A stretch of DNA of 61,270 nucleotides, counting the filler, from Jimgerdemannia flammicorona (taxonomy: Eukaryota), in assembly GCA_003990765.1 (NCBI GenBank). It is 3 parts of 3 records of this genome, joined end to end, with 100 filler letters (N's around TTAATTAATTAA, not from the genome) between each part and the next. Parts side by side here need not be neighbours in the genome. Positions count along the whole stretch, not along the records: positions 1 to 20,360 come from RBNJ01001699.1; 2 more parts are not named here. The stretch is one strand, 5' to 3'. Under the pieces are notes generated by a model. That model was not told the DNA's origin. It did not search any database and saw only the letters and a list, made by a program, of their open reading frames with translations. Of the stretch, positions 63 to 31,680 are shown in pieces. Position 1 is the first letter of the stretch. Every line of letters begins with the position of its first letter. Both the position numbers and the translations under genes were made by a program.

Positions 63-314
63 TAGCATCTATGAAGTTGAGGTTGGATTTGTTGAGGAGA
101 AGTATTTGGTGGATATACTGGAGAAGAGAGTAAAGATAGGTGAGATAATAGTACTAATACCAATATTAGAGTATCTGAGATGGAATTCTAGAGTAGTATA
201 TCTAGTGGTTAAGGGGGTCCCCACAATATTGATAGAAGAGATAAAGAGTAGGATTAGGGTAATGATGTGAGAATATAGAGATATGGTAGATATAGATTTT
301 CAGATATAAGAGGG

Positions 315-1071
315 TATAATAGAATAAGCAATGAGTGATCATGTGACCTAGTGATGATATCATATGATCAAGTATGATATACAATATTATAAATGATGAA
401 TGAATGATGCAAAATAATACAGAAAATAATATCCAGCTTACCCCCAACAATTAGTACTACAGCAATTATTACTACAGCAGCTGATCATTACCTAGTAATT
501 GAGGTCCTGATCATAAAGTATTTTTTGCCACAAATTACCTAATAAAGGTTGCAATCACAAATCTTACTATAGTTACCAAATTAGTCACTTATATTTAGTC
601 AGAAATCACAAACCAACTTGTATAAATACCCCCCAGTTTCCTTTCGAAATAAATTAGTTTTAGTTCAGTTCTTGATACAAGAATCAAGTTCCCCCTACAC
701 ATATACATTCTCCTGAGTTTTAGTAATGATATCTAAGTAACTCTAGTATTTCTAGCTAAACTCCAGAAGCCTAGCTAACTTCTACCAGAACTGAGACTGG
801 TATACAAATCACAAAGACTTAAGTAAACCCATTGAACCTGAATTCCAAGGCAAATTCAGTCTGTATATAGTAAAGAACAAGACTCTTGAAAGATAGAGCA
901 AATCAGAAATATCTTTGAAAGATAAGGTACTGCTGCTATAATTACTTTTAAGTGAGCACTTCCTTAACTGAAGACTTCTTAGTATACATTGTATACTAAG
1001 TCCCTAAGTAATAGTCTTACTTCCCTAAGTATCCAAAAGATTAGAGAGGGATAGAAGTGAGAGATATTATA
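315..1071 (+). repeat. 5' LTR (757 bp) of the chromovirus
   Basis: Colinear with 6228-7015. Termini tataat...ttata (TG..CA after G->A/C->T). TATA box tataaat at 621-627. Confidence 0.92.
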
Positions 1072-1074
1072 ACT

Positions 1075-1085
1075 TGGTAGCAGTA
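1075..1085 (+). promoter_or_regulatory. Primer binding site, tRNA-iMet type
   Basis: TGGTAGCAG 3 nt after the LTR end, complementary to a ...CTGCTACCA tRNA 3' end. Confidence 0.75.
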
Positions 1086-2429
1086 GATTACTCAGCCAAG
1101 AAAGCATCAAGAATACACTCCTGAAAAGTTGGAACAAGACCAACCTTAGATATATAGGAGTAATTCTCAGGACTAATTGTGGATCTCTAAACCAGAGCCA
1201 GAGAAGCCCTTACCATTAGGACTAGGTGGTACCAGGAAACTACAGATCCAGGGACTCATCAGCTTGTAATTGACCAAGCTTATAAGGATCTATACCAGGC
1301 CTTTAGGACTTTCCACCCAGGACTTAGGAATATTGTCAGCTACTATAGGTTCTACAAACTCCTCTGTAGCTACATTGGAATCACTAGGACTCCAGAATCT
1401 ACTGCTACAGCCACCTAGGAATTTTTAGATCATATCTCACCCCCTGTTGCAAGAGAAGTTGCTGCCAAGTAGATTACTTCTGACAGATACCATCACACTC
1501 CTACTAAGACCTCACTTTACTATAGACTAGTTGTATACTATACCTCTGCTATAACAAGATATGAGAACAAGCAAGCAGGCCACTCATCTCCTACTGCTGA
1601 ACAAGAAGTAGGCTCATCTATCTAGCCAGAATCTAATATTCTCTTTAAAAGACCTAGTCAGTATGAGGATGCACTATCTCATCAGAAAAGGGAGTCAGAT
1701 GAAGACTCTATAGGTTACCAGTCTGATGATAGCTAACAAGGAACAGCAGGTCTAGAAATTTACCAAGGACCCACAGGTCAAGAAGATCAGACTCCAGAAC
1801 CAATCCAGCTATCAATACAGAGGTTTGATCTACCATCTCTTATAGGACTACTTGATCTGATCTCTAGGAATCAAGTAACCCCAAGTCATACAGCTCCACA
1901 ACCTCATTAGGTAGAACAATCTTCAGAAGAATCTACCCCTACAGGTCCACTACCAATAGTCAATACAATGGTAGATATCAATATTACAGCACTAGCTACC
2001 CAGCTAGCTATACTAGCAGAGATAGTAGGAAGAATTGCTAAACAGAACAAACCAACTAAGATCTTGCAAATCCCAACATTCAGTGGAAAAAACAGTGATA
2101 TCAAAACCTTCATCAATATAGTTGATACAGATTACTGAGCAAACCAATGGAATGATAATTGAGTACCAACAGGAATACTTACTAACAATCAGAACAATAT
2201 CCTTCAATAGTTATTTGCCACATCAGTAGCACAAGTGGAAACAGTAGCCACATTCTTCATTGGAATAGCAGCTGAGTTCTGGAATACCTTGGAAGAACAC
2301 TCAGTAACCTGAGAAGACTACCCTCAAATTACAGGCCAAGGATCTGGCAAAAACAGACCAGGATAGAATGATCATGAAGTAGGCCCAGGACTCAAGGCCC
2401 TGCTACTGACCAAATTCCAAAATGTAGCC

Positions 2430-4745
2430 TACATACAAGAAATGCTCAACATCTATGTTCTTATATATATTGATGATATACTAATCTATAGTGAAACAGT
2501 AGAGCTACACTATACCCACCTCAGACAGATACTGATCCTCCTGCAAGAACATCCACTCTATATCAAAATGAGTAAGTATAAGTTCTACCAAGACCAGATC
2601 AAGTATCTGGGACATATCATCTCTGCTAATGGTATCAACATAGACCCCCAAAAGATATCAGCCCTCAAGGATATTCTCATTCTCACTACCCTCAAACTAC
2701 TCCAGTGCTTCCGGGTATTGCTGGCTACTACTGAAGGTTTATCTAAGGATACTCTACTATTGCAGTCCCACTGACCAGCCTGGCCCACAAAGGAGTGAAT
2801 ATTAAAACTGAATAGACCTCTGAGTACATCCAGGCAATAGACCATCTTAAGATACTTCTCACTGAAGCCACAGTACTAATTGCACCTGATTCTACCAGAC
2901 CATTCACTCTGACCACAGATGCCTCTGATATTGCCATTGGAGCAGTACTTAGTCAAGAAGATTGCCCCGTAGCCTACTTTTCCCAAAAGCTCAATCCAAT
3001 ATACTACTCATGAGAAGGAACTCCTGGCCATTGTTACTGTACTCCAGAAATGATACCATTTCCTCCTAGGACAACTATTTGTGGCCTATACTGATCACCA
3101 TACTCTATGATATATTCACACACAGCCTATACTGACCCACATACAAGCTCACTGGATGGAAATCAAGTATATCCTAGGCAAAACCAACCATATAGCTAAT
3201 GGCTTCTCTAGATACATAGAAGATAAACTTGTCTTTATGATTGAGATAATTGGAGACCTTACTCATATGATCAAGGATGGCTACCAACAAGACAGCCCCC
3301 TAGTGAATTTCCTTCAATTCTGTCAAGACCCAGAGACTGAGGTCTCAGAACCCATGAGGCAAATGTCCAAAAGATTCACTTGCTATGATGGACTCATTTA
3401 TAGAGATCATGACAGAGTAGTTATACCCAATAATGATACTCTGTAACTCAAGATTATACAGAAACTCCATGATACTCCTATAGCAGGACATTTTGATTTT
3501 GAAAAGACTTATAATCTCCTCTCAAGAGAGTTCTACTGGCCAAAGGTGACCAAGGATATCAAAGACTTTGTGGCCTCATATGAGATATGCCAAAGGTTCA
3601 AAAGCAGTAATAAGCTACCAGCAGGACTTCTGCAACCCCTGCTCATCCCAAGTCACAACTGGGATCAGATTGCAATAGACTTCATTGTCTAGCTTTCCAA
3701 GACCAAGGCAGAATGGAATGCTATCATGGTATTTATAGACTGCCTAAGCAAATAAGCTCATTTTGTACCCACTAAGACCATCACTACAGTACCAGAGATT
3801 GCCAAAATCTTTCTCAACCAAGTATTTAGATTACATGGCATGCCTAGCACTATTGTATCTGACTGAGATGTAAAGTTTATAAGCAACTTCTGGAAAGTAT
3901 TCTTCTTACTCTATAAAACCAAGCTGAAGTTCTCCACTATATACTACCCCCAGATAGAAGTCAGACCAAGCAGACTAATAGGACCCTCAAGCAGATGCTA
4001 AGCATCTTCTGCTATTACAAATAGAATTATTGGGACAAGTATCTAGCCTATACCAAGTTTGCCTATAACAATAGTCAGCAAATCTCCACAAAGAAGACTC
4101 CATTCTTTCTGAACCATGGCCAACACCCAAGGACCCTGAGTACTACTGCCAAATCAGCAGTCCCAGTAGCCCAAGATTTGGCTGAGACCATTTCTGACCT
4201 CACCTGGATGATAAGAGATACTCTTATAAAAGTACAGAATTACCAGACCAAGTATGCAAACTTAAAGTGAAGGGAAGCCTCCTACATTATTAGTGACATA
4301 GTCATGCTTAGAACAGACCATCTTCACCCAGATGCTCTGATACAACAATCAGCCAAAAAACTCCATACTGGAAGAATTGGACCATATAGGATTGTGGAAA
4401 AAGTCAGTGAAGTCAACTATAAGTTATAACTCCCTAATAATATTTGAGTACACCCAGTATTCCATATCAGCCAACTAATAGACTACTATGAGAACTCCTT
4501 TCCCAAGCATATAGTTTTACCACTACTTTCAATTATCATGAGAAAATTGAAATTGAGGAAGTACTTGACTACAAGGTCTGCAAATATCCCAAAACAGTCA
4601 AGCAGTTTTTTCTTATTAAGTGGAAGGGATATTTCACCCATGATATCATCTGGGAAAAAGAAGAAGCTCTGGAGAATGCACATGAAGCCCTTCAGGACTA
4701 TATGGATATACTTACTCTCCAGCAAAGAAAGGAACTATAGCTCTA
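2430..4745 (+). pseudogene. pol: Chromovirus pol remnant: RT C-terminal half, RNase H, integrase, chromodomain
   Basis: YIDDILIYS, YLGHII, TTDASDIAIGAVLSQ, HEKELLA, TDH, LHDTPIAGHF, GPYRIV, HPVFHISQL, then EIEEVLD..FLIKWKGY..DIIWEKEEAL. Protease and RT N-terminus are missing, with gag-like sequence joining RT near 2430. Confidence 0.88.
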
Positions 4746-5388
4746 AAACAAAGAGCATATAGCAAAGAAAGAAAACACCTTATTTATCTGAAATATACAA
4801 TACCAAATATTACCAAAAAAGAGATACTATAACTAATTACTAAGAAGATACTCAAGCAAGAAACAATTCAGCATAGTGTAGTAAAACATATTTGAATAAC
4901 TCTTTTCATGCTATCTGTGTCATCTCTATTAGATGATGACAGATACTTCATTTAGAACTTAAGAAAGCTGATGATATTGAAACCAATCTAAGTCCATCTA
5001 TGTAACAGATATTATTACTAGAGATTGCCTCAGATTACAAGAAATACTATTTCCAAGAGATTCAAACCTCCAGCCATAACAATGGGAGCCCTTACCCTAG
5101 ACAAGGATGACTAATCCTCACAAATGTGCCAACTAGACAAAAAAAAAAGAGGACTAAGATTTGTCAACTCTGTGTAACTATAACTGTAAGTAGTAATATC
5201 TTTGAAATCAGGACTTTCTCAGGTGACCAGTACATACTCTGCTTACAGCAACAGGTTATACATTCTACTGTAAAGTGTGATCGAATTATGATCACACCAG
5301 ACAGATGAATAAGTATAAATACCCAAGGTAAGAATACACTGCAACCCTTACCCCCCTCCCTCTCCCCAAGGAAAAGACAAGATAAAGA

Positions 5389-6216
5389 ATGTCTACTACC
5401 TACTGCCAAACTGCCCACCAGAGTCAGCCTCTCCCCAGCCAGATTGACTGCCTCTTTGGACACCTCCAGGTTATTATTCAAGGAAGGAACTGCCACTCTG
5501 AGGCCCTTAACCTCTCCAGCTAGGACCTAGGACAGTATGTCCTTGACTACTGTGAACTTATCAAAAGGACCTATCTTGCTACCAGTCACCTAGAAATCTG
5601 GTATGAATACAAAATTGGCCATCAACTCTTTCAACATACAAAAGGCCTACCCACTGACCAGGTCTCAGACTAGACCTATCTGGACAGGCATGAGCAAAGA
5701 CTAGCTAAGAAAATCCATCAAATCATGTACCATGTATCTTTTGCGATTCCCAATCTCAACTACATCTAACTGAAGGATTTCCAGAACCTCTTCTTCTCTG
5801 AGATTGATGAGCTAGAAATCAAGGTAGCCCAAGAAGCCAACTTCTGGATTGTCCTCAAGTCCACTGACTGCAAATCTTACTGGAGCCCTCTTCTGAATGA
5901 CAACTCAGACTAATGGCTTCAAGGTCTCTCTGACCTCTTTGAAGGACCACCTATCTGAATGAATATTCCCAGACATAAGGATCAAGAACTCTACTTAGAT
6001 GGTCCCAACTGCATTAGATGGAGAACCCCTACACCAAGGCCTATACCAGTTCCAGAGCCATTTGTAGACCTCATTAACTTCTCCATCTTGAACACTAAGC
6101 CATAATCAGCTACTCCTCCTGCTACTGAAGGAGAAGACAACAACACTGAGGAAAATTGCCCATCTTTCTCTCCCCTGGTCCTCATTTTTCAAATCAATAA
6201 GGATATTGATTTCTAA
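5389..6216 (+). pseudogene. Accessory ORF (copy A, 276 codons, unknown function) between pol and the 3' LTR
   Basis: One frame from ATG 5389 to TAA 6216, no frameshift, six internal stops mostly compatible with C->T. Homologous to 31920-32777, 59547-60008 and 43650-44271. Confidence 0.8.
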
Positions 6217-6227
6217 GAGAGGAAAGA
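6215..6227 (+). promoter_or_regulatory. Polypurine tract
   Basis: aagagaggaaaga immediately before the 3' LTR. Confidence 0.8.
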
Positions 6228-7015
6228 TATAATAGAACAAGTGATGAGTGATCATGTGACCCAGCAATGATATCATATGATCAAGTATGATATACAATAT
6301 TATGAATGATAAATGAATGATGTAAAATGGTACAGAAAACAATATCCAGCTTACCCCCAACAATTAATACCACAGCAAATATTGTCACAGCAGTTGATTA
6401 TTGTCTAGTAATTGAGATCCTGATTACAAAGTGTTTTTTTCCACAAACCACCTGACAAAGGTCATGATCATAAACCTCACTATAGTTACCAAATTAGTCA
6501 CTTATACTTAGTCAGAAATCACAGACCAACTTGTATAAATACCCCCCAGTTTCTATTTGAAATAAATCAGTTTTAGTTCAGTCCTTGATATAAGAATCAA
6601 GTCCCCCCCATACACACACATTCTCCTGAGTCTTAGTAATAACATCTAAGTAACTCTAGTATTTCTGACTAAACTTCAGAAGTCTAGCTAACTTTTGCCA
6701 GAACTGAGACTAGTATACAAATCACAAAAAGACTTAAGTAAATCTATTGAACCTGAATCCTAAGGCAAATTCAGTCTGTGTATAGCAAAGAACAAGACTC
6801 TTAAAAGATAGGGCAAACCAGAAAGACTCTTGAAAGATAGAGCAAATCAGAAAGATCTTTGAAAGATAGGGCACTGCTGCTACAACTACTTTTAAGTGAG
6901 CACTTCCTCAACTGAAGGCTTCTTAGTATACATTGTGTACTAAGGCCCTAAGTAATAGTCTTACTCTCCTAAGTATCCAAAGGATCGGAGATGGATAAAA
7001 GTGAGAGATATTATA
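6228..7015 (+). repeat. 3' LTR (788 bp) of the chromovirus
   Basis: Direct repeat of 315-1071 with one extra ~30-bp unit (tcttgaaagatagagcaaatcagaaa-like). Confidence 0.92.
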
Positions 7016-7508: not shown

Positions 7509-10500
7509 CACCTGTCACCAGTAACATTCAGATGACACAAGACTCAGACAACACTTTTCACAATGTTTTGGTGAAAGGAGACTATCAACATAGACAGCAA
7601 CAAACATACTAGTGAGTATATCAGCCAGGGGGGCAGCAGTGCCTTTGACTGGCAGCATATAGGGAGGAGGCAGGGAGATGGTTTGGAGATGCCAGAGCCT
7701 TCTATGGTGGGCTGCAGCATTGGTGGTAGAGGGAGAGGCAGATTGAGGCAGCAATGAGAGAGGAGGACAACCTTTGCTGACAAGGTCAAGATGGAGAGAA
7801 TGGCATCTGGTCTGAATAGTTGGTTGGGACTGGAGAAGATATCAATGGCTTCAGTTGGGGGATAGGGAGGGGCCCCCATAGGAGGGTCAGGCAGTTGGGG
7901 GGGGGGGGGGGGGGGGGGGGGAGGAGGAGCTAGGGATGGGACTGCTGATGGAGCTGTAACTGGGGATCTGGAAAAAAAATCCAGATGTGATAGTTGTTGG
8001 CAGATCAGGACAGAGGGAGGGCACAAGGCCCAGGGACCTGGCAGATAGTATGACTAGCATGATGTCAGCACCATTACTCAAAAATTTGAGGTCAGAATTT
8101 GCTATCACATTGTGCTTTCAAGGCTTGGTGGTGACTGCAAGGACGATTTTGGGGCTGGTGGTGTAGAAGGTAAAGGGGGTGGCTTCAGTGAAGTTCTTAA
8201 AGGGAAAAGAAGGGGTCAAGATTAGATTTGAGATAGAGGCATCATTATTAGAGGCTGTGAAGAAGGGGGTAGTAGTGGGCAGAGTAGTGGTCCCTATGGT
8301 CAGGTGCATGTACTGGGACCCCTAAGTGATACAGTTGATAGTATTGGATCTTCTCATAGTGTTGAGGGAGAAGGCCAGAGAGTTGATTGTGGAGGTGGTC
8401 AAGGAATATGGAGAAATTATAGACATTGGGTTCAGAGTCTGGGAGGGTACTGAACTCTGGATGAGAGATGTTGACATCAGGGTGAGGCTGGCTGGGAGAG
8501 AGAATACTGGGAAGGTGAGGGATTGGCCAGTAACCCTTAAGTGGGGATTGGTTGAATATATGGTTTTGTGGTGAAGAAGATGCCAGAGAAAGAGGAGGAC
8601 TTGCTGGAGGCTCTTGAGGATTTAGCAGAAGCAGTGAAGAGGAGGAGATTGGCTTGGAAGAAGTATGAAGCCAAGATGGTGGTGGAGATTGTGGATGGAA
8701 AGAAGATCAGGATAGACTGGGTGGTCTGAGAGAAGATGCAGGAGAGGTGAATCCAGAAGGAGCTGTTAGAGAAGTTGAGAGAGAGTATAGTAGGTGGTGG
8801 TGTAGGAGAAGGGAGTGCCAGACTGATGGAGAGTGCTTGGGCAGGGGAGCACAGGTTGGCCCAGGATGTGGCCCAGAGTAGATTGAACAAGGAGGGACTG
8901 GGTGACTTGGTGGAGGATGCTGAAATGGGTGAGAAAGTCCACCCTCAGTATGGTGTCCTGAGCAGGGCAGGTGGGGAGGAGGAATAACTGGACATATTGG
9001 AGGAGGAGTGAGATGAGTCAGAGAGGAGGAGCACCTTGGTGGACCCTATAGTGGAGGTCGAAGGAGTTGCCTGGGGTGTTGCTGAGATGGTGGATGAAGA
9101 GAAGTGGCTGTGGAAGGCTCTGGAGAGAGTAGCAGCTAAGGAGCTGGGGAAGAGAACTTCTGGGTCCTAAGTGATAGGCATTGGGAGGAAATTCTCCATA
9201 GAGAGGAGGTGTTGAGGAAGATTAGAAATGAGATCCTGGTGGTGCTCTTAGAGTTGGAGGAATATCAAGTAGATGATCAGAGGGAGGAGGCCCTTTGAGA
9301 GATTGCAAATGACTAGATGGCATACTTGTGGAATTTGAGAAAGGGGTTGGAGAAGTGGAGAGTGGTATGTATGGATTATCAGGTGGAAATGGAGGTTGTG
9401 GATGGGGTAGAGTGTCAGGAAATCTTGGAAGCACTGGATGCTCAAGCTATAGTAGAGAGTGAGTTGGAGGCAGAGTGACACTTGGATTTTACTGGTGATG
9501 GGATGAGTATGGAATTCTATACTGGGCTCTCAAAATCTAAAATTATTCAATATGAACAGTACAACTAGAATCTTTTCTTTAAATGTGAATGGGTTGAGGA
9601 GAGCAGTACAGTGTAGGAATATATTTGGCTAATTGAAGGGACTGGATGCAGATCTCTTCTTACTGCAGGATGTGCAGTATGAGATAGATATGGACTTACA
9701 GGACTGGACTAGAGAATGGGGTGGGGCAGCTGTGTGGACTGGACTGGTGGGCATTCTGGTTCAAAAAGGGATGGGGGACATTGGGGATATTGGACATTGG
9801 GGAAGTAGGTTGGTATAGGGAGTATGGAAGAGACCTGAGTGGAACCCTTTGACTATTGGGGCATATTATTGCCCAGCTGAGAGGGGAGAATACATAGATT
9901 AGATCAGAGACTTGAGAGAGGCTGGTGTTATGGGTGAGGCAGAGATTGATTGCCTGGGGGGTAATTTCAACATAGTATGTGATAATGGAGCAGATAGAAC
10001 TGATGGTGGGAGAGGAATGAGAGGCAGAAGTGGTGGATTGGACAATTGGATGGAGATTGAGAGGTTGAGCTCCTTAGTTGACTTGGGGCAATAGTTTTGG
10101 GTAGAGTGCTGAATTTACACTCACTGGGTGACAGAGCTGGGCTCCAGAATCAACTGGATATTAATAGTGAAGTGCTGGGGAGTAAATGTCTGAGATATGT
10201 TAGAGGTAGTTTGGTGCCCATGGTTGGATCACTGGGGTCTAATAGGAAGTGAGAGATTTGGGGGAAGTGAGAATGGGCCTGGACATTAGTGACTGAATTC
10301 TTCTTTGTTGGAGGATGGTTCCTTATAGACAGACTGGGAGGTGAAAGTTATTGTGAAGATTAGTAGGTAGTGGGAACAGGGATTGATGATTAGTGATCAC
10401 TGGTGGCAGCTGAAATCAAGTACTCAGAGGTACTGGAGGGAGGCAGGGAAAGGAAGGAATGTTCAGTGGTGGCAGTGAGTGCTATGGGCTTTACAGAGAT

Positions 10501-12358
10501 TGGCAGTGCTTCTGAGGAGGTGGGCAGAGTTACTGGAGGATTGGGGGACAGATGATTGGTGAATTCTATAAATACAAAAAGAAGTCGATGAGCTAAAAGA
10601 AGTGTTACAAATGGAGGAAGAGGTTCAGCTGAAGGGAATGGTGGTGAGGTTGCAGTGGCAGGGATTGGAGGAGGGAGAGAGACCTACTAGATTTCTTTCA
10701 CAGTTGCTCCAAGCTTGGAGAATCAGACAGTAGTGAGATGGTATTTTAGATGAGGATGGGGAGATGGTGGCAGGGACTCCTAAGATTTTGGGATTGCTGA
10801 GAACTTACTGGAGAAATTTATAGAGTGATGAAGAAGGGGGTGAGGATGCTCTGAACATTGAACAGCAGTTGGAGAATTGGTATCTGGACCCAGCTCTGGG
10901 CCTGGGGACACTGGGAGCCCCAGTAAGGGGGGAGAAAATATACAAGGTCTTGGCTTCGACAAGTAAGGGGATAGCTCCAGGAGAGGATGGGCTTCTCTGG
11001 GATTTTTAGAAGAAGATGGCTGGGGTGGAGGTGATATTGGAGGAGATGACTGTAATGAGTGATGAGGTCCTTCAATCTGGAACTTGGATTGGAGGCCAGT
11101 GCCTAGGGCTGGTCTCCTTGCTCTATAAGGATAAGGGAAGAAGAGAAGATTGGAAGAACTGGCAGCCAATCAGGCTCCTGGACATGGACTGAAAGCTGGT
11201 GATGAAGATCTTGATAACTAGGCTACAGGGGATCACTCAGCAGGTACTAGAAGTGGAGCAGAGGGGATTTGTTGGTGGTCAGTTGATCCAAGATGGAACT
11301 GTCTGAGTCTATGGGATGATTGAAGGGGCTTGGGCAGCTGGGGTTGATGGCCAGTTAGTGTTTCTGGATCAGGAGAAGGTATATAACAGAGTGAGGAGGG
11401 TCTGGCTGGAGGGAGTGCTGAAATATATGAGAGTTCTCCCAGAGTTCAGGAGGTCATTAATCAGTCTATTGGAAAACAGTCAAGCAGCATTAGTGGTGAA
11501 TAGGCACAGAGGTGTGACTTTTTTGCTAGATCATAGGGTGCTATAAGGGGATCCTTTGTCACCTATCCTATATGCCCTTTCCTTGGAGCCCCTATTGGAT
11601 AGGATCTGGTATCATATTGGGGGTTTGGATATTTTGAGAATTAACTGGAAGGTGGGGGCTTTTGTGGATGACATGATGGTTGGACTGGGTTCCTTAGAAG
11701 ATGTGGAGGAATTAAGGAGAACTGTGGAATAGTATAAGAGGAGCTCAGGTGCTAAACTTAACTGGCACAAATATGAGACTCTAGTGCTAGGTGGTGGAAT
11801 AGTTGGCAGTAATATGATTGGAACAGTGGTTCCAATAAGAGAACAGGTCTGATACTTGGGGATCTACTTTTTAGTATATGGGTCTCTTCTGCCTCATGTA
11901 TGATAGGAACAGCAGCTACTAGTGTGGGGGAATGTTCTCTTGAGGTGGGGTGGTCAGCATATATCCTTGGCAGAAAGAGTGATAGTGCTGAATGTATATT
12001 GGCTATCAAAGCTATAATATGTGAGGTATTATCTGGACTTCTCAGTATGGGTGGTCAGGAGACTTCTGAAGATGGCAAGATCATAGATTTAGACCAGGCA
12101 GTGTAGTCAGATAGGCTGGGAGGTTCTGACTCTACCTGTTGACAGAGGCAGATAGGGCTTAGTAGACTTCACCAAGCACCTATATTGTCTGAGAGTATGG
12201 TGGCTGAAGAGAGCAAGTGAGTTAAGAGGCTGGGAGTGGGTACCACTCATACAGAGGGTGTAGGAAGTCTGGTACTCCTCTCATGGAGTGACTGGTGACC
12301 TGCTTGCGATGGTGGCCATAGATGGAAGCAGGAGGATGCATTACAAAGGCTTTTGGTG
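7509..12358 (+). mobile_element. L1/Tx1-like LINE, 5' end intact, interrupted in late ORF2 by the next LINE
   Basis: 5' end cacc..tcaccagtaa..gacacaagactcagacaacac shared with 12359. Decayed ORF1 to ~9520. ORF2 from ATG 9552: endonuclease (SLNVNGL, LLQD, GNFN, DHW) and RT (SSRRGW/PGEDG region, NWQPI, DQEKVYNRV, GDPLSP, FVDD, YLG). Confidence 0.9.
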
Positions 12359-14618
12359 CACACCTTTCACCAGTAATATTCAGGTGACACAAGACTCAGA
12401 CAACACTTCTTACAATGTTTTTGGTAATTGACAACTATCAATATGGATGGCAATGATCAAACTGGTGAGCATGCTGACCAGAGGGGTGGTGGTGCCTTTG
12501 GCTGGCAGCAAGTAGGGAGGAGGGAAGATGGTTTGGGGATACCAGGGGCCTCTATGGCTGGCCGAGGCACTGGTGGTGGAGGGAGGGGTAGTCTGAGGCA
12601 ATGAGAAGGGGAGAGGTCAACCTTTGTGAACAAGGTCAAGATGGAGAGAATGGTCTCTGGTCTGGATAGTTGGCTGGGCCTGGGGAAGGTATCGATGGCT
12701 GCTGCTGGGGGACAGGAAGGAGTGCCCAGGGGAGTGTCCAGTGGTAGGGGAGGGGGGGGAGTAGGGGCTGGAGATGTGACTGCTGATGGGGCTGTGACTG
12801 GAGATCTGGAAAAAAATCCAGATGTGATAGTGGTTGATGGTTCAGGACAGAGGATAGGTATAAGGCCCAGAGACCTGGCAGATAGAGTGACAGGCATGGT
12901 GTCAGCACTGTTACTCAAGAAATCAAGGTTGGAATTCACCATCACAATGTGTTTCAGGGGCTTGGTGGTGACTGCGAGGACAATCTTGGGGCTGGTGGCA
13001 CAGAAGGGAAAAGGGGCAGCATTGGTAAAGTTTTTGAAGGAGAAAGAAGAGCTTGAGGTGGGGTTTGAGGAAGAGGAAGCATTGCTGGCTACCATGAAGA
13101 AGAGGGTAACAGTGGGTGGGATTGTAGTCCCTATAGCCAGGTGCATGCACTGGGACCCCTGAGTGGTACAGTTGACAGTGCTGGATCTTCCTACAGTATT
13201 GAGGGAGAGGGCCAGAGAGCTGATTGTAGGGGCAGTCAAGAAGTATGGTGAGATTGTGGACATAGGGTTCAAGGTCTGGGAGGGTACAGAGCTCTGGACT
13301 GGTGATGTCAATGTTCAGGTGAGGCTGGCTGGAAAGGAGAATACAGGGAAGATAAGGGATTAGCTGGTGGCCCTGAAGTGGGGACCAGTGGAGTGCAAGG
13401 TCATGTGGGTGAAAGGGACTCAGGAAGAGGAGGAGGATTTGCTTGAGGCTCTGGAGGATCTGGCAGGTGCAGTTGAGAGGAGAAGATTGGCTTGAAAGGA
13501 GTTTGAAGCCAAGACAGTAGTGGAAGTAGTTGATGGGAAGAGGATTAGGATGAATCAGGGGACCTGGGAGAAGATGCAGGGGAGGAGAATCCAGAAGGAG
13601 CTACTGGTGAAGTTGGGTGGTGGTAGGGCTGGCAGCAGCAAAGGAGATGGGAGTGCAGAATTGCATACAAGTGCCTGGGTGGGGGAACATGAGACGGCCC
13701 AAGATGGGGCCCAGGATGGACCGAGGGAGGAGAGAGAGGGCAGTGTGGAGGCAGATGTGGAAATGAGTGATGGGGTTCACCCTCAGTATAGTGTCCCAAG
13801 TGGGGCAAGGGGTGAGGAGGAGTTGCTGGATATTCTGGATGAGGAGTGGGATGAGTCGGTAAGGAGGAGCACTTTGGTGGACCCAGAGATGGGGGGTGAT
13901 TGGGTTGTCCAGGATATAGCAGAGGCGGTGGATGAGGAGAAGTGGCTGTGGAAGACTCTGGAAGGGGTGGCAGTGGAGGAGCTGGGGGGAGAGGACTTCC
14001 AGGTTATGGAAGAGAGGTATTGGGAGGAATTCTTTGTAGTGAGGAGGTGCTACAAAAGGTGAGGAATGAGATCCTGGCGGTCCTCTTGAAATCAGTTGAA
14101 TATCAGGTCGATGATCAGAGAGAGGAGGAACTTAGAGAGATTGTGAATGATCAGGCGGCTTACTTGTGGAACTCAAGGAAGAGATTGGAGAAGTGGAGAG
14201 TGGTCTGCACAGACTATCAGTTAGAGATAGAGGTAGTGGATGGAGTGGAATGTCAGGAAATCTTGGAGGCATTGGATGTACAGACTGTTGTAGAGGGGGA
14301 CTTGGAAGTGGAGCAGTGCTTGGATCTGGCTGGGGATGAGATGAGCATAGAATACTAGGCTGGGGTCTCAAATCCAAACATTATTTATTATGAACAGTAC
14401 AACTAGAATATTCTCTTTGAATGTGAATAGGTTACAGGGGGCAGCTAGGAGGAAGTATATATTTGGATAGCTAAAGGGACTGGAGGTGGATCTCTTTTTA
14501 CTGCAGAATGTCCATTATGAGGTAGATGTGGACTTACAGGATTAGACTAAGGAATGGGGGGGGGCTGTGGTATGGATGGAGAGGGTGGGTATCCTTGTTC
14601 GAAAGGGGATGGGGGGGA
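12359..14618 (+). mobile_element. L1/Tx1-like LINE of the same family as 7509; ORF1 plus the start of ORF2, interrupted by the next LINE
   Basis: Colinear with 7509-9780. ORF2 ATG at 14390 (MNSTTRIFSLNVN). Similarity stops at ~14618. Confidence 0.9.
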
Positions 14619-14786
14619 CTTCTTTTGCTCAAACCATTCAGAGCGAGCTAAGCCACACGGACATCTTTTCGTGAAAAGCAACACGTTTTCAAGTTTTTAC
14701 TTTGTCTATACTGGTGTACAAGGTGTGGCAGGAGTCTAGTAACAGTTTACAGCAAGTTTCATCAAATTCCACAGAGTTTTCATCAA

Positions 14787-16631
14787 ATGGCGACCCAGGG
14801 TTCATCAAGCTCTGAGCACTTGGAGAGAAGGAGGCCTGGCCTGGGCCTCCCCAAGAGTTTTGCAGCAGCAGCTGGGACTGGTGCTGGAGCAGGAGGAGCA
14901 GGTGGTCAAGGAAGGCAGGCTGGTATCGAAAGTTGGCATACAGTGATGGGGGGCAGAAGGGCGGCTACTAGGCCCATGGGAGTAGGGCAGGGGGGATATA
15001 GTGTTGACAGGGGTAGAAGTCAGGTGACCAGCCAGGTGACTGGTCAGGTGACTGGTCAGGTGCCTGCCAGGGGCCAGGGGTCCGGAAGTGGTGCAGCTGG
15101 GACTGGCATTTCTGGGGCTGGGCCTGTGGCTGGGGTAACTGCTGAGATATCTGAGAATAAGAAGAAGGCTATGATGGTGGCAGGCTCTGGTGAACTGGTG
15201 GTGCACCCCTTCTTTCACAAGTCGGTGTTGACGTGGGCTATCTCAGCAAACTTTCTGGGGCTGGGGATGTCTACTAGAGAGGTCTTGTGGCTAGTGGGAG
15301 AGGAGGTTGCTGGGGCAGAGTCACTGAAGTTCATCCCATCAATGGAGGTGGTAGAGATAGGATTTGTGGAGGAGGAGGATATGGCGAAAGCCTTGGAGAA
15401 AGGGCTGGTCATCAAGAATATCAAGGTGGGTATGGTGAGGTGCCTGAGGTGGGACCTGTGTACCATACACCTGGTGATTGAGGGGCTGCTGATGTTGGGA
15501 AGACAGGAGACTAAAGGGATTATAGCAGAGGCACTGGGGGGCTTCGGCGAGATGGTTGACTTTGGGTTCATGTTCTGGGAGGGGACTAAGCTGAGGAATA
15601 GCAACTGCAAGGTAATGATGAGGCTGGAAGGCAAGGAGGCTATAGGGCTAGGGAGGGACTGGCCAGAGGTGATCTGTGTCGAAGGGCAGGAGTGCAAAGT
15701 GTGGAGAAGGAAGGGCTTGGAACAGGAGGAGGAGGAACTGCTAATTGCCCTAGAGGAGAGGGAGGTGGCAAAGGAAGTGTGGAAGAGGAGATGGGAGGAG
15801 TTTGCCAAGGACTGAATCTGGATTCCGATGGATGGGAGGAGGAAGAAGTGGAGGAGGGCAAACTGGGAGTGCTTACAGACAGTCCTCCAGGGCTCAAAAG
15901 TGGAGGAAGAAGAAAGGGCAGAGATGGCCAAGAGTCAGATGGAAGAGGTAGAGACAGCTTAGGTGTCCTATTCACAACTGGGGCAAGTAGAGGACTCGGC
16001 TCATGTGCCAGTAAAGGGGAAGTGGGCTGATAAGGAGGAGACGAATGTAGGGGGTTTTGAGGAGGTTGTCGAGGTGGTGCCAGAGACTCAGTTGGAGGAT
16101 GTTCAGATGGCAGGAGCAGCAAATGTTCATTGGGAATGTCCAGAGACCAGCGAAGTGGTGAGGCTGGAGAAGGGTATGGAGGAAGATAACCTAGTGAATA
16201 TGGCCTCTGATGTGTCGGTGGACAGAGAGATGTTACAGGAGCTGAGCAGGACCCCAAGGCCTGCCACCCCTGGGCCCTTGGTGATGATGGCTGATGATTG
16301 GTATCAGGCAGTACTCGAGGAACTGGCAGAGGAGGATATCAAGGAAGTGGATGTATTTAATGGATCTCAAGAGGCCTGGAAAGGGTTCCTCAATATAGCA
16401 TTACAGGGACCAAAGTTGGTGACAGCGATGGTGGCAGCACTTCTGGATGATGAAGGATATGAGATAGATGAGGACCATATGGCTGACATCAGGAAGGTGG
16501 CATCCAAGCAAGTGAATATATTCTGCAGTGGAGCAAATGGAGCCCGTATCTGGAGGGCAATCTGTGAGGAACAGAAGGCGATTATCTGTGGTCAGGCAGA
16601 GAAGGTGGTGGCGATTTCAGTGGAGCTTTAA
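14787..16631 (+). pseudogene. LINE ORF1: Gly-rich N-terminus, RRM-like middle, acidic C-terminus
   Basis: ORF track 14787..15815 and 15963..16631 share a frame, separated by stops compatible with C->T. Homologous to ORF1 of the neighbouring LINEs. Confidence 0.8.
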
Positions 16632-16646
16632 ACATTTTTATTTATA

Positions 16647-19600
16647 ATGATGAACAGTCTACATATCTTATCATTAAATGTCAATGGTTTGTATGATGGA
16701 GTGAAGTGAAGGCATCTATTTCATTGGCTGAAGGTCAGAAGATATGATGTTGTATTGCTACAGAACATTCGGGCATATGGGGAGCAAGATTATGAAGATT
16801 GGAGTAGGGAATGGTATGGAAGTACTGGTTGGAACGAGCAGGTGGGCATTTTGGTTGGCTTGGGGAGAGGTGAGCTGATGGAAGTTGCAGCATATGGTGA
16901 TTGATTGGTCTGAGGGAGGTTGAAAGGTGGAGCTGGAGATGGACTAGTGGTCGGCTCCGCTTATCTGCCAGTGGTTGGCAGAGAGCAGAACCAATGGGTG
17001 GAAGGCTGGTCGGCTTAGGGAGACAGAGAGGAGGTGGGGCTGGACATTCTAGGGAGGGACTTTAACATGGTACGTGATAGAACATTAGATAGATCTGATG
17101 GTAGAGTTGGTGTGGCTGTATCTACCGGGCTCTTACGGTGGCTCCAGGTAGAGAGGGATATGGGATTGGTTGATGGGGTTCAACAGCATCAAGGGGAAAG
17201 GCCAGGGCCATTCACTAGGTGGCACCTAGTTGGCAAGAACTTGGTTGGAATGAGGATTGATTGGATTCTGGTGGCAGAATGCTGGGGCAATGTATTGGAT
17301 TCAACAGGAGTATGGTGGTGTCCTTGGTCAGATTACTGGGGAGTTGAGGTGTGTGGGAGATTCCAGACAGTCAGTAGAGGTGGGGGTAGATGGTGACTCA
17401 ATATGGCACTACTCAAAAGGCAGGTGGAAAGGGACCAATTTGTGGAAATTGCAAGGCAGGAAGTGGCACAGTGGAAAGACAGTGGACAGTCAATAGTACA
17501 GTGGTGGGGGAAATTCAAACATTTGGCAGGTGCTTACTGGTGGGATGTGGGAGAGGTAGCTGGAAGGGAGCAGAAGGATAGAGAAAGGAGAGTTGAACAG
17601 GGGCTACATTGGCAGCTGAAATCCCTGGAGGGAGAGAATTTATCTAGAGAGAGACACTCCCAGTTGGCTAAGGAGGTGGCTGAATTGTGGCTAGATTTGA
17701 AGGCAGCAGAAGATAGGGTGGTAGATAGGCTACTGGCGAGGTTGTGGGCAAGGCGGTTGGAGGAAGGAGAGCGACCTACTAAGTATTTGTCCAGAATATT
17801 GAAGGCCAGAAGAGTGTGGCACAGCTGGGCTTCAGTGTTGCAGAAGGATGGTGTTGAGGTTACTGGTATTACTGATATGCTTGGAGAGATCTCGGGGCAA
17901 TGGCGTGCTCTATGGCAAGATGGAGGAGGTCTGGTGGAGGGAGTGTCTCTACTAGAGGATAATGACAATCTTGTTAGCAGCTGGCCAGTGGTGGCAGTGC
18001 CTGAGATAGGTGGGGTGGTAATGAGTAGGGTGGCCCTTGAAGAGGTTTTGGAGGTACTGCGGAAAGTGCAGGCTGGCTCATCACCAGGAGAGGATGGGCT
18101 GCCTTGGGAGTTCTGGAAGGAATTCCAAGTCGAGTTTGGGGGATGGCTTGTTGAAATGGCAAACTTTGTGATAGGTGAAGGCTGCTGGGTTGGCAATGGC
18201 TCCTTAGGGTTAGTCTCTCTGCTCTACAAGGAGAAAGGGGATTGCCGTGTGTGGCAGAACTGGTGGCCCATTATGGTACTGAATGTAGATAGGAAGTTGA
18301 TATCCAAGATCCTGGCTAGGAGGATGCAACATTGGATTGGCCAATTGGTGGGTAAAGAACAGCAAGAATTTGTGAAGGGGAGACAGATCCAAGACAGCAC
18401 AGCCTGGGTGCAAAATGTATTAGAGGGCTGTCGAAGCTAGCAAGTGGATGGGAGAATAGTGTTCTTGGATCAGGAAAAAGCATATGATAGAGTGAGGTGG
18501 GACTATCTGGAGGCAGTTCTGCGAAAGACAGGATTCAGTATAGTGGAGGCTTGAAAACTGATGGGCCTGGTGCAAAGCTGTCAGGCTGTGGTCCTAATGA
18601 ATGGGTGGAGTGGCCCAGAGTTTGTCTTGGGGAGAGACATGCCACAGAGGGATCCTCTCTCACCCCTACTCTACATCCTATCCTTGGAGCCTCTGTTGAC
18701 ATGGTGAGAGGAAGGCTCACCAGGCTGAAGATGGGGGAGGTGGTCTGGAAGCTGGGGGCCTTCGCTGATGATATGGTGGTAGGGTTAGGCTGTATGGTGG
18801 ATGTAACAAGACTGCAGGAAGGAGTGAGGCAGTATGAGAGGCTGGCAGGGGTGAAGCTGAATTGGGGCAAGTATGAGACTATGGAGCTGGGAGCTGGTTT
18901 GGGAGAATATGGACATCTTGGTCAACTGGTCCATACAGAAGAGGCAGTCCGATATCTGGGTGTCTGGTTCTCAGTATATGGAACAGTTTGCCAAAGGAGT
19001 GGTGGAGTGGAATGATACAGAAGTGGGAGAATGCCTTGGTAGGCTGGTCAGGGAGGGGCTTCTCCTTGGTGGAGAGGATTGTAGTTCTGAATGTATATTG
19101 GCTACTGAAGCTGTGGTATTTGGGATATCATTTGGACTTTCCCAGTTGGGTGGTACAGAAACTGAAGAAGGTAGTGGAAGGATGGCTGTGGCAAGGAAGA
19201 AGACCACAGATTAGTTGGGAGACAGTAGTGATGCATACAGTAGATGGTGGATTGGGGCTGGTGGATTTTAGGAGGCAGCTGGAGGTGCTTCAGGTTTGGT
19301 GGGGCTGTCGATTGGCTGAATTAGAAGTGGATAGTTGGGGCAAACTGGCTATGGACAATTGGGAAGTCAGGTTTTGCCCCCATGGTAAGGTTCGAAAGGA
19401 TATACGTGGGTTGCTACAGATTGGAAGGGTTAGCAGATTGCAGTACTGGGGGTTCTGGTGGGGCATTGTAGAAGCTTGGCTGGCAATGAGCCTCACAGGT
19501 CCGGAGCCGGATAAAGAGGAGGATATGGAATAGAGATGGTGGCGACTTGGCAATATTTGTATTGGTGGCCACTGGTTGGCAGAATACTCTCTGTCTGGGG

Positions 19601-20265
19601 CAATGGAATGGATCTGGATGGGTCCACTTGAGAGATGGCCAGTTGGTTGGCAGAAGGCTGGATTTGGAGAAGATTGGGAGTGGGGCCCGGTTTGGGAATG
19701 GGGGACCTCATTGCTCAAGGTTATACTACCTAAGTTCTGGGTGGTATGGGTGGAGGAATGTCATGCTGGGGTACAGGATAGGGTGGATGGAGGCTGAAGG
19801 TGTGAGGGTATGCAAGTAGTATTGTGAGCTAGATGGGAGTGTGGTGCAGACACCGGAGCATGTTGTGGCAGTATGCCCAGGGGTGGAGGGATTTTGGCAG
19901 ACATTGGAAAGCTACTGGAGTGGCAAAAGTGAGCATGCAGGGGGCCCCACTAGTCGGGTGGTCAAGCGGCAACTGGTGGGCGAGATTGGGGACATTTGGG
20001 GGGGCCTAGGCCGGATTATTGGCATCTGGGTCCTGATGGTGATACACTGGCGATGGGTGTTCGAGAAGGATCCTTGGATGGGGATTGGCAAATTGGTGGA
20101 GTGGTGGAAAGGGTTGCTTCTGGAAGTGGTACAAGGGTGGTAGTATCAGGGGAAGAGGTACCAGTTGGGAGCCATGAGGAAGGTACTAGACATTGTCTGG
20201 AAAAGTCAAGAGCACCTAGTACTTAGTGAGAAGGGGGTGCAGTGGAAAGAAGGAGTTGGCTGATA
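16647..20265 (+). pseudogene. LINE ORF2: AP-type endonuclease, reverse transcriptase, C-terminal Cys/His motif
   Basis: ILSLNVNGL, DVVLLQ, RDFN, IDWIL, SSPGEDG, NWWPIMVLNVDRKL, DQEKAYDRV, DPLSP, FADD, YLGV, C..C..TPEHVVAVCP; several stops and frameshifts. Confidence 0.9.
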
Positions 20266-20360
20266 GGCCCTTCTTTATATATATATTTATAGTAGTTATC
20301 AGATAGGGTCTTGTTTATTAGATAGTTCCGTAATAAAGGAGTCCAAGTGACTATAAAAAA

Positions 20361-20460
20361 NNNNNNNNNNNNNNNNNNNNNNNNNNNNNNNNNNNNNNNN
20401 NNNNTTAATTAATTAANNNNNNNNNNNNNNNNNNNNNNNNNNNNNNNNNNNNNNNNNNNN
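20361..20460. other. Assembly gap with artificial six-frame stop spacer
   Basis: N-run containing TTAATTAATTAA at 20405-20416. Confidence 0.95.
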
Positions 20461-20885
20461 TTACCAGTCAGGGTCAAGGGTAGAGGGCCAATTACATCCA
20501 TTGCTATATGGGCAAATGGTACTGGTTCTATGTGTGCTGATCCTGGGGCTTGATTCCATTGGTCTTGTTTCTGTTTCTGGCATTTGTCGCATGTTTTGAC
20601 GAATTGTCTGATGTCTTCCTCCATTCCTGGCCAACATATTGTTCTTCTTGCCTTATCATATGTATTCGTTCCTCCTAGATGGCCAAGTTCATGTACTGAT
20701 TTCATCGCTTGCTCCTTCTTGTGTTCTGGTATGACCAGTAGTTTTCCTTTCTTCAGTGTTTCTCCATCGGTTTCGAATTGTTTCCATGTCCTGTTGATAA
20801 TTGTTTGTGTCCATTCTTCCAGATGTTGGGGCATCTTTCGCTGTCCCAGGTATGTGATGATCCTGTAGTAGAGCTCCTTATTCAT
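20461..20885 (-). CDS. Integrase N-terminus as a separate ORF (truncated by the gap)
   Basis: ATG at 20885: MNKELYY..HELGHLG..WPGM..CDKCQ..PFAHIAMDVIGPLP. Different frame from RNase H. Confidence 0.85.
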
Positions 20886-23800: not shown

Positions 23801-24929
23801 AGCTCAATATCCTGGTCCATCTCTTCGGCTTGACTTTCCATGGCAGTTTCCATCTGCTTTTCCACTGGGTTCTTCTTGGGTCTTTCTGGCGGTCTCTTGT
23901 AGGGTTCTTTGCGAACATCCTTCTTAGTGGTCTGAGCAGGATAGGCCTCCCATTCCTCTTCATCGGATTCTCCGATTTCTTCGAAGGTGATTATATTGGC
24001 CTGCTCCTTGTTTCATATGGCATTGCTTGGTTGAGCCTTGTGTTTGGTTTCACTCATACATTCATAGGAGTAGTGGCCTTCTTCTCTGCAGCTGTAGCAG
24101 GTACCTTTCTTCTTATCTGAGGTGGCGGCAAACTTCTGAACAGAGTGGCAATCTCTTCCTTGGATTTCCTTTACCACATCTCCCAGGTGGGCAGTCATTT
24201 CAGCAAACCTTTTGGCAAGTTCCTCCATAGGGTCACTGTTCTTTTGCTGCTCTGTAGCTTTTGGCTGAGGTGTGTTTCGATTGATCATTGTGGTGGGGAT
24301 CACACTGGTTGCCTTGGGTGCCTCGATTCTGACTTCTGTAACTCTTTCCATTATATGGTCTTGTGGGTGTCTGGCTATCTAGTATCGCTGAGCATAGGTG
24401 ACCCTCTGTGGCAGATCCAGAATCACTGGTGATGAGCAAAATGGCCATGGCTATTTCTGGATAGACTCCTTTCATGAAGGTTGCTTCAGCTACTTGATCT
24501 CGGGTAGTAGCAGCATAATCTACAAGGATTATCTGATATCGAATTCTGGTATAAAATGTGTTTGGATCCTCACTCATTCCTTGGTACGTTGTGTTGAGCT
24601 GATCCTTCAGGGCTTGCTTGATCTTGTCTGTATAATATGTATTTCAGAGCCAGGTCTTCTGTACTGTCAGTACAGCATCGGCATTATTTCCTGCATGGGT
24701 TGTGGCTGTGAATGCTGCTCTGGTAGGGCCTCATAGGCTGAAGGGCATGAGGGCTACTTGCTGTGCTGCTGTCAGGGTCCTTACAGCAGCATACTGCTCG
24801 AAATCGTCAATAAAGGTGATGATTGATTCATCTGAGGTATATCCATGGAATACTGGTGGTCTCATATCCATCTTATCTGGGTATTGGGGCTCAGTTTGTA
24901 TGGTTGTTCAGGTGGTGGCAGTTGTTCAT
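20878..24929 (-). pseudogene. Gag-protease-dUTPase-RT-RNase H polyprotein in a single frame
   Basis: ORF-track segments starting at 24351, 23865, 23199, 21642 and 21141 are all in one frame, broken by point stops. One small frameshift in early gag. Confidence 0.88.
22400..22812 (-). CDS. dut: Trimeric-type dUTPase domain within the polyprotein
   Basis: All five motifs: AGMD, RSSLA, GVIDSD(C/Y)TGEI, DRLAQML, RGKKGFGSTG. Confidence 0.95.
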
Positions 24930-24985
24930 TGTTCAGCTTGAAAGTGAGGGATTCATCTTGAATCACCAGCCAATGGGCACCAAGT

Positions 24986-25461
24986 TGTAATGTAGCGGAT
25001 GCTTACTCTTGAAAGTACGTCGGATTTCTGTATCTTGAAAACTTAACTGTTCTGACTCTCGCAGAGTCTCTTGAAGTGGCAGGGGAGAGTGGGTGAGTTC
25101 GAAGTATATCTGCCCACAGGCTTACTAGTTCCTTTGCTATCTCTTTGCTTTGAACTATTTTGATCTGAGGTTTATTCACTCGAAGATACTGGGTTATTTA
25201 TACAAGTTTGCTAGCTATGAGAGGGTGGCTAAGTAATAAATGAGTCATTTGGACTTTGTCGAAACATTTGGACAATGTCTAAATGCTATACTAAATCGGG
25301 GTATCTGATTTGGATAATGTCTAAAATTTAGACAATGTCTAAGAATTTAGACAATGTTGAAATCGAGGACTGCTAACTATAAGGCTATACTACTTTGGAA
25401 ATGGGTGCGATCAAGTGTCTATTCCCTATTTCCTTCTTCCCAATTTGGCTATACCATCACA
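24986..25461 (-). repeat. 5' LTR (476 bp), short-LTR type
   Basis: Reverse complement begins tgtgatggtatagcc and ends ctacattaca, like 60046-60500. PBS TGGTGCCCATTG adjacent. Confidence 0.92.
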
Positions 25462-25719
25462 ATAGTTAAATCACTTGGCTATACTATTCTACTAAGTTAT
25501 ATAATATAACAGTTAAATCAAATTAGTAACATAAATCAGAAGAATAAACATTTAATAATAGTATCTGAATCTGATTTTCTGATTTATTATAGTATAGAAA
25601 TTACCTTTACTGTAGATATTATATCTAAAATATTATCAGTGAAACTATTGTTACTTTCATAAATGTTGAGATTTAATAATTATTGAGATTTCATGGATAT
25701 TAAGAATCCATACTTGTGA

Positions 25720-31645: not shown

Positions 31646-31677
<32 letters not shown>
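31646..31677. repeat. (AT)n microsatellite directly upstream of an LTR
   Basis: About 16 AT units. Confidence 0.9.

Positions 31678-31680
<3 letters not shown>

Follow-up and report, generated by a model that had tools for sequence, protein, structure and literature searches.

On balance, our analysis makes it probable that ORFs A, B and B' (long form) and C (short form) are copies, damaged by repeat-induced point mutation (RIP), of one hitherto undescribed and fast-evolving accessory gene of Ty3/gypsy retrotransposons. Judged from the sequences compared here, ascomycete-type Ty3/gypsy elements appear to carry this accessory gene at their 3' end, in the sense direction. Intact, the long form has about 270-340 aa, and the short form has 153 aa. 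A fourth candidate of an earlier, preliminary description of this DNA, D, is a non-member on present evidence.

LTR retrotransposons and RIP in the window

The window, that is, the whole stretch of DNA analyzed (61 kb), is a nest of LTR retrotransposons that is AT-rich (23-52% GC) and riddled with transitions. Elements were defined by self-BLAST of the window together with Pfam searches on stop-tolerant translations. E1 (about 314-7015, plus strand) is a chromovirus whose LTR pair, with the 5' LTR at about 314-1071, is 85% identical by self-BLAST. Its pol ends with a chromodomain at 4549-4707 (plus strand; Pfam Chromo, E 4.6e-7), upstream of which the reverse transcriptase (RT), RNase H, integrase and SH3_Tf2-1 domains were found with Pfam. 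E2, a dUTPase-carrying gypsy element on the plus strand, consists of a 5' LTR of ~1.6 kb (31678-33284) and an internal part that reaches to ~38991 and has protease, dUTPase, RT, RNase H and integrase domains (Pfam). The E2 LTR starts with TGTAATGG, and the identical start is found again at 38992, immediately behind the purine tract AGGAGGAAGA. The 3' end of E2 (38980-39070, plus strand) comprises this polypurine tract (38982-38991) and a 3' LTR stub of ~80 nt, since a tandem array truncates the 3' LTR ~80 nt past its start. Internal homology of E2 to E3 starts at 33274 (self-BLAST), and the primer-binding-site-like TGGTGCCC comes next. E3 (53972-60501, plus strand), a gypsy element with the same domain order as E2, has LTRs of 332 bp that are 93% identical; E4 (20461-25462) is an inverted E3-like fragment, and the region from 41 to 54 kb contains degraded copia elements.

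Between repeat copies, the ratios of transitions to transversions are 80:10, 21:1 and 65:14, and the mutated C mostly stands before A (CpA), in 47 of 80, 12 of 21 and 36 of 65 cases, respectively. Such a transition bias at CpA is the signature of RIP, which is known from ascomycetes, and by this substitution pattern the repeat region of the window appears to be RIP-mutated and of ascomycete type. The internal stops of the ORFs had been attributed in the preliminary description to C-to-T changes in a repeat-mutating genome. This attribution agrees with the transition excess, with the CpA bias and with the homologues, some of which have Q, R or W at most, but not all, of the 12 internal stop positions, most clearly at A175, A190, B72 and C41-C116; the internal stops in A, B and C are thus consistent with an origin by RIP. 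As a side observation, the copies in the window are all inactivated and were not spared by RIP, so that they give no sign of protection against it.

Members of the family in the window

The four translations quoted in the preliminary description (A, B, C and D) were re-read from the sequence and match. A (5389-6216, plus strand) is the long-form accessory ORF of E1 and has 6 internal RIP-type stops, and B (31920-32777, plus strand) is the long-form accessory ORF inside the E2 LTR, with a start codon mutated to ATA and one internal stop. BLASTP aligns A and B, which are homologous well beyond chance, with an E value of 7e-38 (122 bits, 34% identity over 216 residues), and all 7 gap positions of the BLASTP alignment lie outside the quoted core. 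An extra copy that is absent from the preliminary description, B', was found at 60693-61137 (plus strand), where a second E2-type LTR start is followed by an ORF fragment (60944-61137) with the N-terminal ~65 codons from the ATG at 60944; B' is cut off by another repeat, and 60693-61137 shares 78% DNA identity with 31656-32110 (self-BLAST). C (59547-60008, plus strand), the short-form member of E3, has 153 codons and 5 internal stops.

A profile made from 11 database proteins only, run with hmmsearch on the six-frame translation of the window, matched B (31983-32774, E 1e-107), A (5452-6141, E 2.3e-71), B' (61006-61137, E 8.9e-13) and C (59736-59957, E 4e-4). Pairwise, C is marginal, with BLASTP E values of 0.03 to A and 0.008 to B. 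Comparison of the A/B-family profile (13 rows) with the C-family profile (7 rows) by hhalign gave a probability of 88% (E 3e-6 over 113 columns), in the same register as given in the preliminary description. Furthermore, P0010, a divergent database member, matches the A/B profile with an E value of 8e-16 and has the 'AHLQGVT' stretch that is common to the C group; P0010 bridges the A/B and C groups. Given this bridging and the profile matches, C is best read as a distant short form that would have kept the N-terminal helical region and in which the second half is absent. Hence, the claim of four homologous copies stands for A and B by direct comparison and for C by profile comparison, and it is not supported for D, for which every test was non-significant.

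Breadth of the family

With B as the query, 6 proteins at 55-76% identity were found, and with C as the query, 6 other proteins at 68-83% identity; all of them are open frames. A profile search of 1.84 billion cluster representatives, carried out with no length filter, returned 6 proteins (138-342 aa) at E <= 0.001, and a word-seeded search with combined alignment returned 14 proteins. All relatives come from ENA or JGI metagenome contigs. The intact ones on these contigs are 153-342 aa long, as exemplified by P0001 (271 aa), P0008 (342 aa) and P0012 (153 aa), and the metagenome loci L001 and L002 have open frames of 323 and 291 codons, respectively. By these searches, the accessory family is real but narrow.

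The Pfam search that the preliminary description had suggested was carried out with Pfam-A and gave no described domain at the curated cut-off for the 4 window frames or the 6 intact relatives, the best results being sub-threshold chance matches (E 0.026-0.12). The PDB sequence profile search had 0 matches at E <= 10, the best feature scores in the ESM Atlas (0.88 and 0.86) were below the meaningful level, and full-text literature searches, which covered the additional ORFs of Botrytis in text passages, found no description of the family. Together with the lack of a fold match (see below), these results agree with the earlier view that the protein family is unknown.

The narrowness of the family, with 6 of 1.84 billion representatives, would suit an ORF that is a mere passenger, captured or arisen de novo, that is without a role and persists since the sampled copies are young. 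The highly variable C-terminal half points the same way, as does a weak constraint proxy, based on transversions only (codon positions 1+2 over fourfold sites, 0.55-0.89), which cannot serve as dN/dS because of too few sites and saturation. However, frames of 271-342 codons are open in copies that are only 45-50% identical at the protein level, and motifs are conserved between A-type and B-type proteins although the integrases of the elements are 23% identical. Moreover, the gene has been kept in two retrotransposon lineages and in three positions, and no host-gene relative was found with B as the query, in the profile search of 1.84 billion representatives or in the word-seeded search. A passenger is thus unlikely, and the claimed conservation at the protein level is upheld by the open frame kept across divergent copies.

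Placement at the 3' end of the element

In E1, A is flanked by the chromodomain on one side and the polypurine tract on the other and hence, as described earlier, follows pol of a chromovirus. Its stop (6214-6216) runs into the polypurine tract (6215-6226, plus strand), after which the 3' LTR (6227-7015) follows, as seen from the alignment with the 5' LTR and locus L002. The same order is found in the un-mutated metagenome locus L002, with ..DIDF, the stop, GGAGGGAGGA and TGTAATA. The second placement, inside an LTR, was likewise confirmed, since 31678-33284 contains the whole ORF B. The ORF is preceded by the purine tract AGGAGGAAGA and by TGTAATGG, the start of the LTR (38982-38999; LTR start also at 31678), and therefore the whole B ORF is LTR sequence, spanning positions 243 to 1100 of about 1607 of the LTR. 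B' has the same layout in a second E2-type LTR, and both E2-type LTR starts that extend far enough contain the ORF. C was correctly placed after the integrase: in the +1 frame, its start (ATG, within ACCATGG) and the pol stop (59555-59557) share an overlap of 11 nt, and the ORF ends 160 nt before the E3 3' LTR, which starts at 60170.

The plus strand carries A, B, B' and C as well as the pol domains of these elements, E1, E2 and E3. A and C have the position of sense 'additional ORFs' (aORFs), in an LTR element, outside gag and pol and between pol and the 3' LTR, and B is placed just past the LTR boundary, inside the LTR. The placements of A, B and C are one context, the 3' end of the element RNA, and the sole difference among them is the position of the polypurine tract and LTR boundary relative to the cassette. 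The four different contexts of the preliminary description are thereby reduced to variants of one, D having failed. The start of the long form is kept as MP.. in A-type and B-type proteins, which are 46% identical; the start of the short form is MANN.. in 4 of 6 relatives, and the other 2 begin at an internal Met.

An alternative is that the ORF forms a C-terminal extension of Pol, which would be made by read-through, frameshift or termination-reinitiation and which the protease would set free. A shares its reading frame with the E1 chromodomain, and the overlap of start and stop codons seen in C is an arrangement that is typical of coupled translation, so that A and C may be translationally coupled to pol. 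However, ~600 nt with many stops lie between the chromodomain and A with its TATA box, and intact L002 is without an open frame into the ORF, with upstream stops in all frames. In addition, the polypurine tract and the LTR boundary separate B from pol, the start is conserved as MP.., and 0 of the 6 representatives from the search without length limit are fused to pol. An extension of Pol is, in our judgment, quite unlikely.

A putative promoter of the accessory gene

In 6 of 6 copies, a single TATA[AT]A motif occurs in the 200 nt that precede the start, and it is at -65 to -87. The boxes are TATAAATA at -75 in A (5314-5321, plus strand) and TATAAAAG at -87 in B (31833-31840, plus strand), at -84 in B' (60860, plus strand) and at -86 in C (59461-59468, plus strand), where the box is within the integrase C-terminal coding sequence; in L001 and L002, the motif is at -65 and -80, respectively. 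These are the only two un-mutated loci with upstream DNA, which in L001 amounts to 68 nt, and on both strands of their contigs TATA[AT]A occurs 2 times in total in L001 and once in L002. In the alignment of five upstream regions, the TATAAA core is an invariant block with diverged flanks, and a second conserved block, AAGACTYACYACAAAYAAA, stands just before the ATG in the four B-type and L002 rows, from which the mutated A departs.

The presence of a TATA box in 6 of 6 copies, always 65-87 nt ahead of the conserved start, points to an autonomous cassette that would have a promoter of its own. There is moderate evidence, drawn from these upstream regions, for an internal promoter that would give rise to a short mRNA ending at the LTR polyadenylation site. 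Since the TATA box of C is in coding sequence, its conservation could have another cause. In E2, where no short-form ORF follows, the homologous part of the integrase lacks TATAAAAG. As to word frequencies, TATA-like words are common in AT-rich mutated DNA, and TATAAAAG has 11 occurrences on both strands of the 61-kb window (5.4 expected), 3 of which sit 84-87 nt before B, B' and C.

That the conserved thing is DNA or RNA, namely a cis-acting U3 or 3'-UTR region with enhancers, packaging or polyadenylation signals that is open by chance, would suit the location (cis elements are to be expected in U3 and in the 3' untranslated part) and the conserved blocks in the upstream DNA, but it is very unlikely in view of the protein match of A and B (E 7e-38) that has no counterpart at the DNA level (window self-BLAST, E 1e-10), of the long open frames that persist in diverged intact copies and of fourfold sites that change more than codon positions 1+2.

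Probable movement between lineages and a model for the cassette

E2 and E3 are sisters, with identities of 63% in RT/RNase H (over 480 aa), 63% in integrase (over 303 aa) and 53% in gag-protease, and E1 is far from both (RT 38-42%, integrase 23%). The accessory gene is present in two Ty3/gypsy lineages with far-apart pol genes. E2 has the long form inside its LTR, and E3 has the short form before its LTR. The C type is only 14-20% identical to the long form, for which the A-type protein P0007 served as the reference, and the A type is 46% identical to the B type in intact relatives and 34-36% on the mutated window copies. The tree of the accessory gene is therefore unlike the pol tree, which makes at least one exchange or replacement likely and lends support to the relocation proposed in the preliminary description. 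The usual route of such an exchange is a template switch, near the 3' end, from one co-packaged RNA to another, and the accessory cassette may have moved in this way. For the Podospora element crapaud, template switching is discussed in connection with U3 variation (PMC10787394). A construction of the E2 LTR from the cassette and an E3-like LTR found no support: the alignment of the E2 LTR with the E3 LTR scored 40.5, at the level of shuffles (mean 39.3).

In our model, the ORF would be a self-contained cassette that is transcribed from its own TATA promoter. The cassette mRNA would be short and end at the LTR polyadenylation site, and neither splicing nor read-through of pol would be needed. 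For the E2 lineage, this would make each LTR a gene in its own right, even where it is a solo LTR. As a unit complete in itself and located beside the strand-transfer region, the cassette would be swappable between co-packaged element RNAs, which would account for the conflict of its tree with the pol tree. More weakly, we infer that the product would act in trans on element expression or on a host factor. The model in its most far-reaching form seems doubtful to us. In it, the E2 LTR, also as a solo LTR, would be an autonomous gene made up of TATA box, ORF and LTR polyadenylation site that goes on providing a trans factor once the remainder of the element is gone; template switching at the 3' end would have carried the cassette between unrelated Ty3/gypsy lineages, and the factor would act against the host's control of repeats (through silencing, heterochromatin or a RIP-linked process) or switch on element LTRs.

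Properties of the protein and possible role

Intact members are acidic (pI 4.5-4.9), with an uneven distribution of charge: a net charge of +1 to +8 makes the N-terminal 60 residues, with their Arg-rich helix, basic, and beyond residue 190 a strongly acidic tail (net charge -14 to -26) is dotted with hydrophobic residues and has recurrent DLI[SNT]F and terminal LNF.. motifs. The short form is the helical part only. No membrane segment was found in 7 intact members, the maximal Kyte-Doolittle mean over 19 residues being 0.19-1.05, and because there is no hydrophobic segment, the accessory protein is not Env-like, in line with the preliminary description.

Structure prediction, which had been named there as a further check, gave a useless first AlphaFold model (8 rows, pLDDT 42). 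The second model (20 rows, P0007) is mostly helical, with a pLDDT of 70.2 and a pTM of 0.64; its better part comprises residues about 20-170, with a helical core of ~150 residues. Searches with the whole P0007 model had a best E value of 0.47 in the PDB (Foldseek) and of 0.13 in BFVD, and VIA-align against 48,161 chains had a best Z of 4.7, with none at Z >= 5. The outcome is a middling helical model that points to no function and resembles no PDB or BFVD fold beyond chance. The sequence features and this model would suit a soluble adaptor or regulator more than a component of the particle, whether structural or enzymatic. Transcription activators and some chaperones have acidic tails of this kind, dotted with hydrophobic residues. 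A trans-acting regulatory role, either in element activation or in interference with host repeat control, may tentatively be considered, although we regard it as rather less than probable. The more specific function suggested in the preliminary description, that of an anti-silencing factor (such as VANC) or a transactivator, is not supported: the RIP-riddled copies of the window give no sign of protection, and no Pfam family was matched.

Candidate D

D (43650-44271, minus strand) is AT-rich, RIP-degraded DNA. BLASTP of D gave E values of 0.27 and 0.058, on scraps of 9-24 residues, hhalign gave a probability of 0.07% (E 0.67), and hmmsearch with three profiles gave no match at E <= 10. The RIP-tolerant (transition-tolerant) DNA alignment of D to the A, B and C regions scored 100, 105 and 75, compared to shuffle means of 96, 98 and 80, respectively. 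A RIP-aware profile alignment, which allows for any T or A having once been C or G, placed 16 of the 270 AT-rich null windows at or above the score of D. A and B scored ten times higher than D, and C was missed too, so that this alignment is able to find only an A/B-like copy.

The location of D in a solo LTR, as stated in the preliminary description, could not be demonstrated either. Self-BLAST found no repeat of the D stretch in the window that would mark an LTR, and matches to copia gag (about 46085-45827) and Pol_BBD (44758-44578) were found upstream of D on the same strand. D is ~300 nt downstream of this copia-type Pol_BBD match, which was the only one found with Pfam at E <= 10 in the three minus frames of 41500-44800. 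With copia gag and Pol_BBD just upstream on the same strand, D is at the expected place of copia pol, and from its position it would be copia pol. That D is a fourth member in a solo LTR, degraded beyond detection, is highly improbable: hhalign does return the register of the preliminary description (ICKH against AKKIH), though with an E value of 0.67, and the RIP-aware score is in the upper tail, but all six tests were non-significant, the stretch is without a repeat in the window and the copia matches lie just upstream.

Relation to known accessory genes

Extra genes of LTR retrotransposons are the raw material for retroviral accessory and envelope genes. To our knowledge, a function has been established for almost none of them, and sense-strand examples from fungi have hardly been described. 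Among retroviruses, MMTV sag is encoded in U3 of the LTR; the likeness to the B ORF inside its LTR is one of layout only. Foamy-virus tas/bet are driven by an internal promoter, and here, too, the likeness is one of layout only, a TATA box ahead of a 3' accessory gene, with the promoter in our case being putative.

According to passages of PMC7264820, plant LTR retrotransposons have sense aORFs between pol and the 3' LTR that are present across the copies of a family and whose function is mostly unknown; some aORFs have their own promoter, the example shown being the antisense gene23 of maize Grande. Like these aORFs, the window family is additional to gag and pol and situated between pol and the 3' LTR. 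As far as those passages go, it differs in its fungal host, in being sense but not Env-like, in its unrelated sequence without a Pfam match, in its location inside the LTR in one lineage and in being common to a chromovirus and a dUTPase-carrying gypsy element. CERV of Cer1, a Ty3/gypsy element of C. elegans, is described in an extract of PMC10309623 as a family-specific accessory protein for nuclear export of genomic RNA in trans. By this description, it is similar in being a novel, family-specific accessory protein of an LTR retrotransposon; CERV, however, comes from a spliced mRNA, and the window family is proposed to have its own promoter. For Boty/BcGypsy of Botrytis cinerea, passages of PMC8365987 report an antisense gene, brtn, and other additional ORFs, and thus extra ORFs in gypsy elements of a RIP-proficient ascomycete. 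In contrast to brtn, the window family is sense; the other Botrytis ORFs, as far as they are described in those passages, could coincide with it.

Hence, extra ORFs between pol and the 3' LTR (in plants) and single accessory proteins (in animals) are already known. What is new here is the protein family, together with its occurrence on the sense strand in fungi, its putative promoter, its location within the LTR in one lineage and the fact that a chromovirus and a dUTPase-carrying gypsy lineage have it in common. The family is a tractable case: it offers a compact cassette with a putative promoter, intact environmental-fungal versions, long and short forms, three placements relative to the LTR boundary and signs of movement between lineages. 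If the protein acts on host repeat control, it bears on the survival of retrotransposons in repeat-mutating genomes; an inert protein would leave the gene useful as a marker of recombination between retrotransposon families. More generally, masking of transposable elements conceals whole protein families from annotation.

None of the sequencing runs on record as holding the stretch is listed as an RNA run, and those that hold small shares of the B LTR are mostly labelled as soil metagenomes. We base no conclusion about expression on run X13, which is LTR-baited and only guessed to be RNA, and in which the word depth of contigs was ~500-4100 over the B LTR and near 0 over gag-pol.

The chromovirus E1, which carries the long-form copy A of the accessory ORF, is possibly the second member of a tandem arranged as element-LTR-element. 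Immediately 5′ of its 5′ LTR, positions 240-313 hold the last codons of an A-type ORF (..MVDIDF) together with a purine tract; further 5′, at 1-60, comes a poly(A) run.

In the E2/E3-type gypsy elements, Pfam places a dUTPase domain between the protease and the RT. The domain was found in E2, the element with copy B in its 5′ LTR, at 34900-35400 (E = 3.4e-24), and in E3, the carrier of the short-form copy C, at 56400-56900 (E = 2.7e-23); a third, weak match lies in a degraded copy at ~50500. The 3′ LTR of E2 is broken off, about 80 nt past its start, by a dense tandem array (39102-40568) with a register of 9 nt and, at a higher order, a unit length near 363 nt, through which three minus-strand frames stay open for 464-488 codons. 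The LTR holding B′, the N-terminal part of the ORF, is interrupted by another AT-rich repeat (61137-61270), whose translation (..KTEPMFY.IL.FNY..) is found again on the minus strand at ~41500-42000.

The residues LAHL.GVTPTDF of the short form (C, 59840-59900) and their counterpart IAHLQGVT in P0010, a divergent database member of the family, may bear a faint likeness to a helix-hairpin-helix motif; none of the Pfam HhH models matched the four window frames or the six intact relatives.

N occurs in four 44-base runs, arranged as two pairs at 20361-20460 and 40819-40918. The 99% "repeat" family D5 is an artefact of these runs.

The two strands of the 13 kb at 7509-20300 differ very markedly in composition (GC skew +0.43 to +0.53), at a GC content of about 50%. 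Pfam gave no match for the six long ORFs of this stretch, and self-BLAST of the window revealed a 4.8-kb direct repeat within it (7509-9777 versus 12361-14615, 75% identity).
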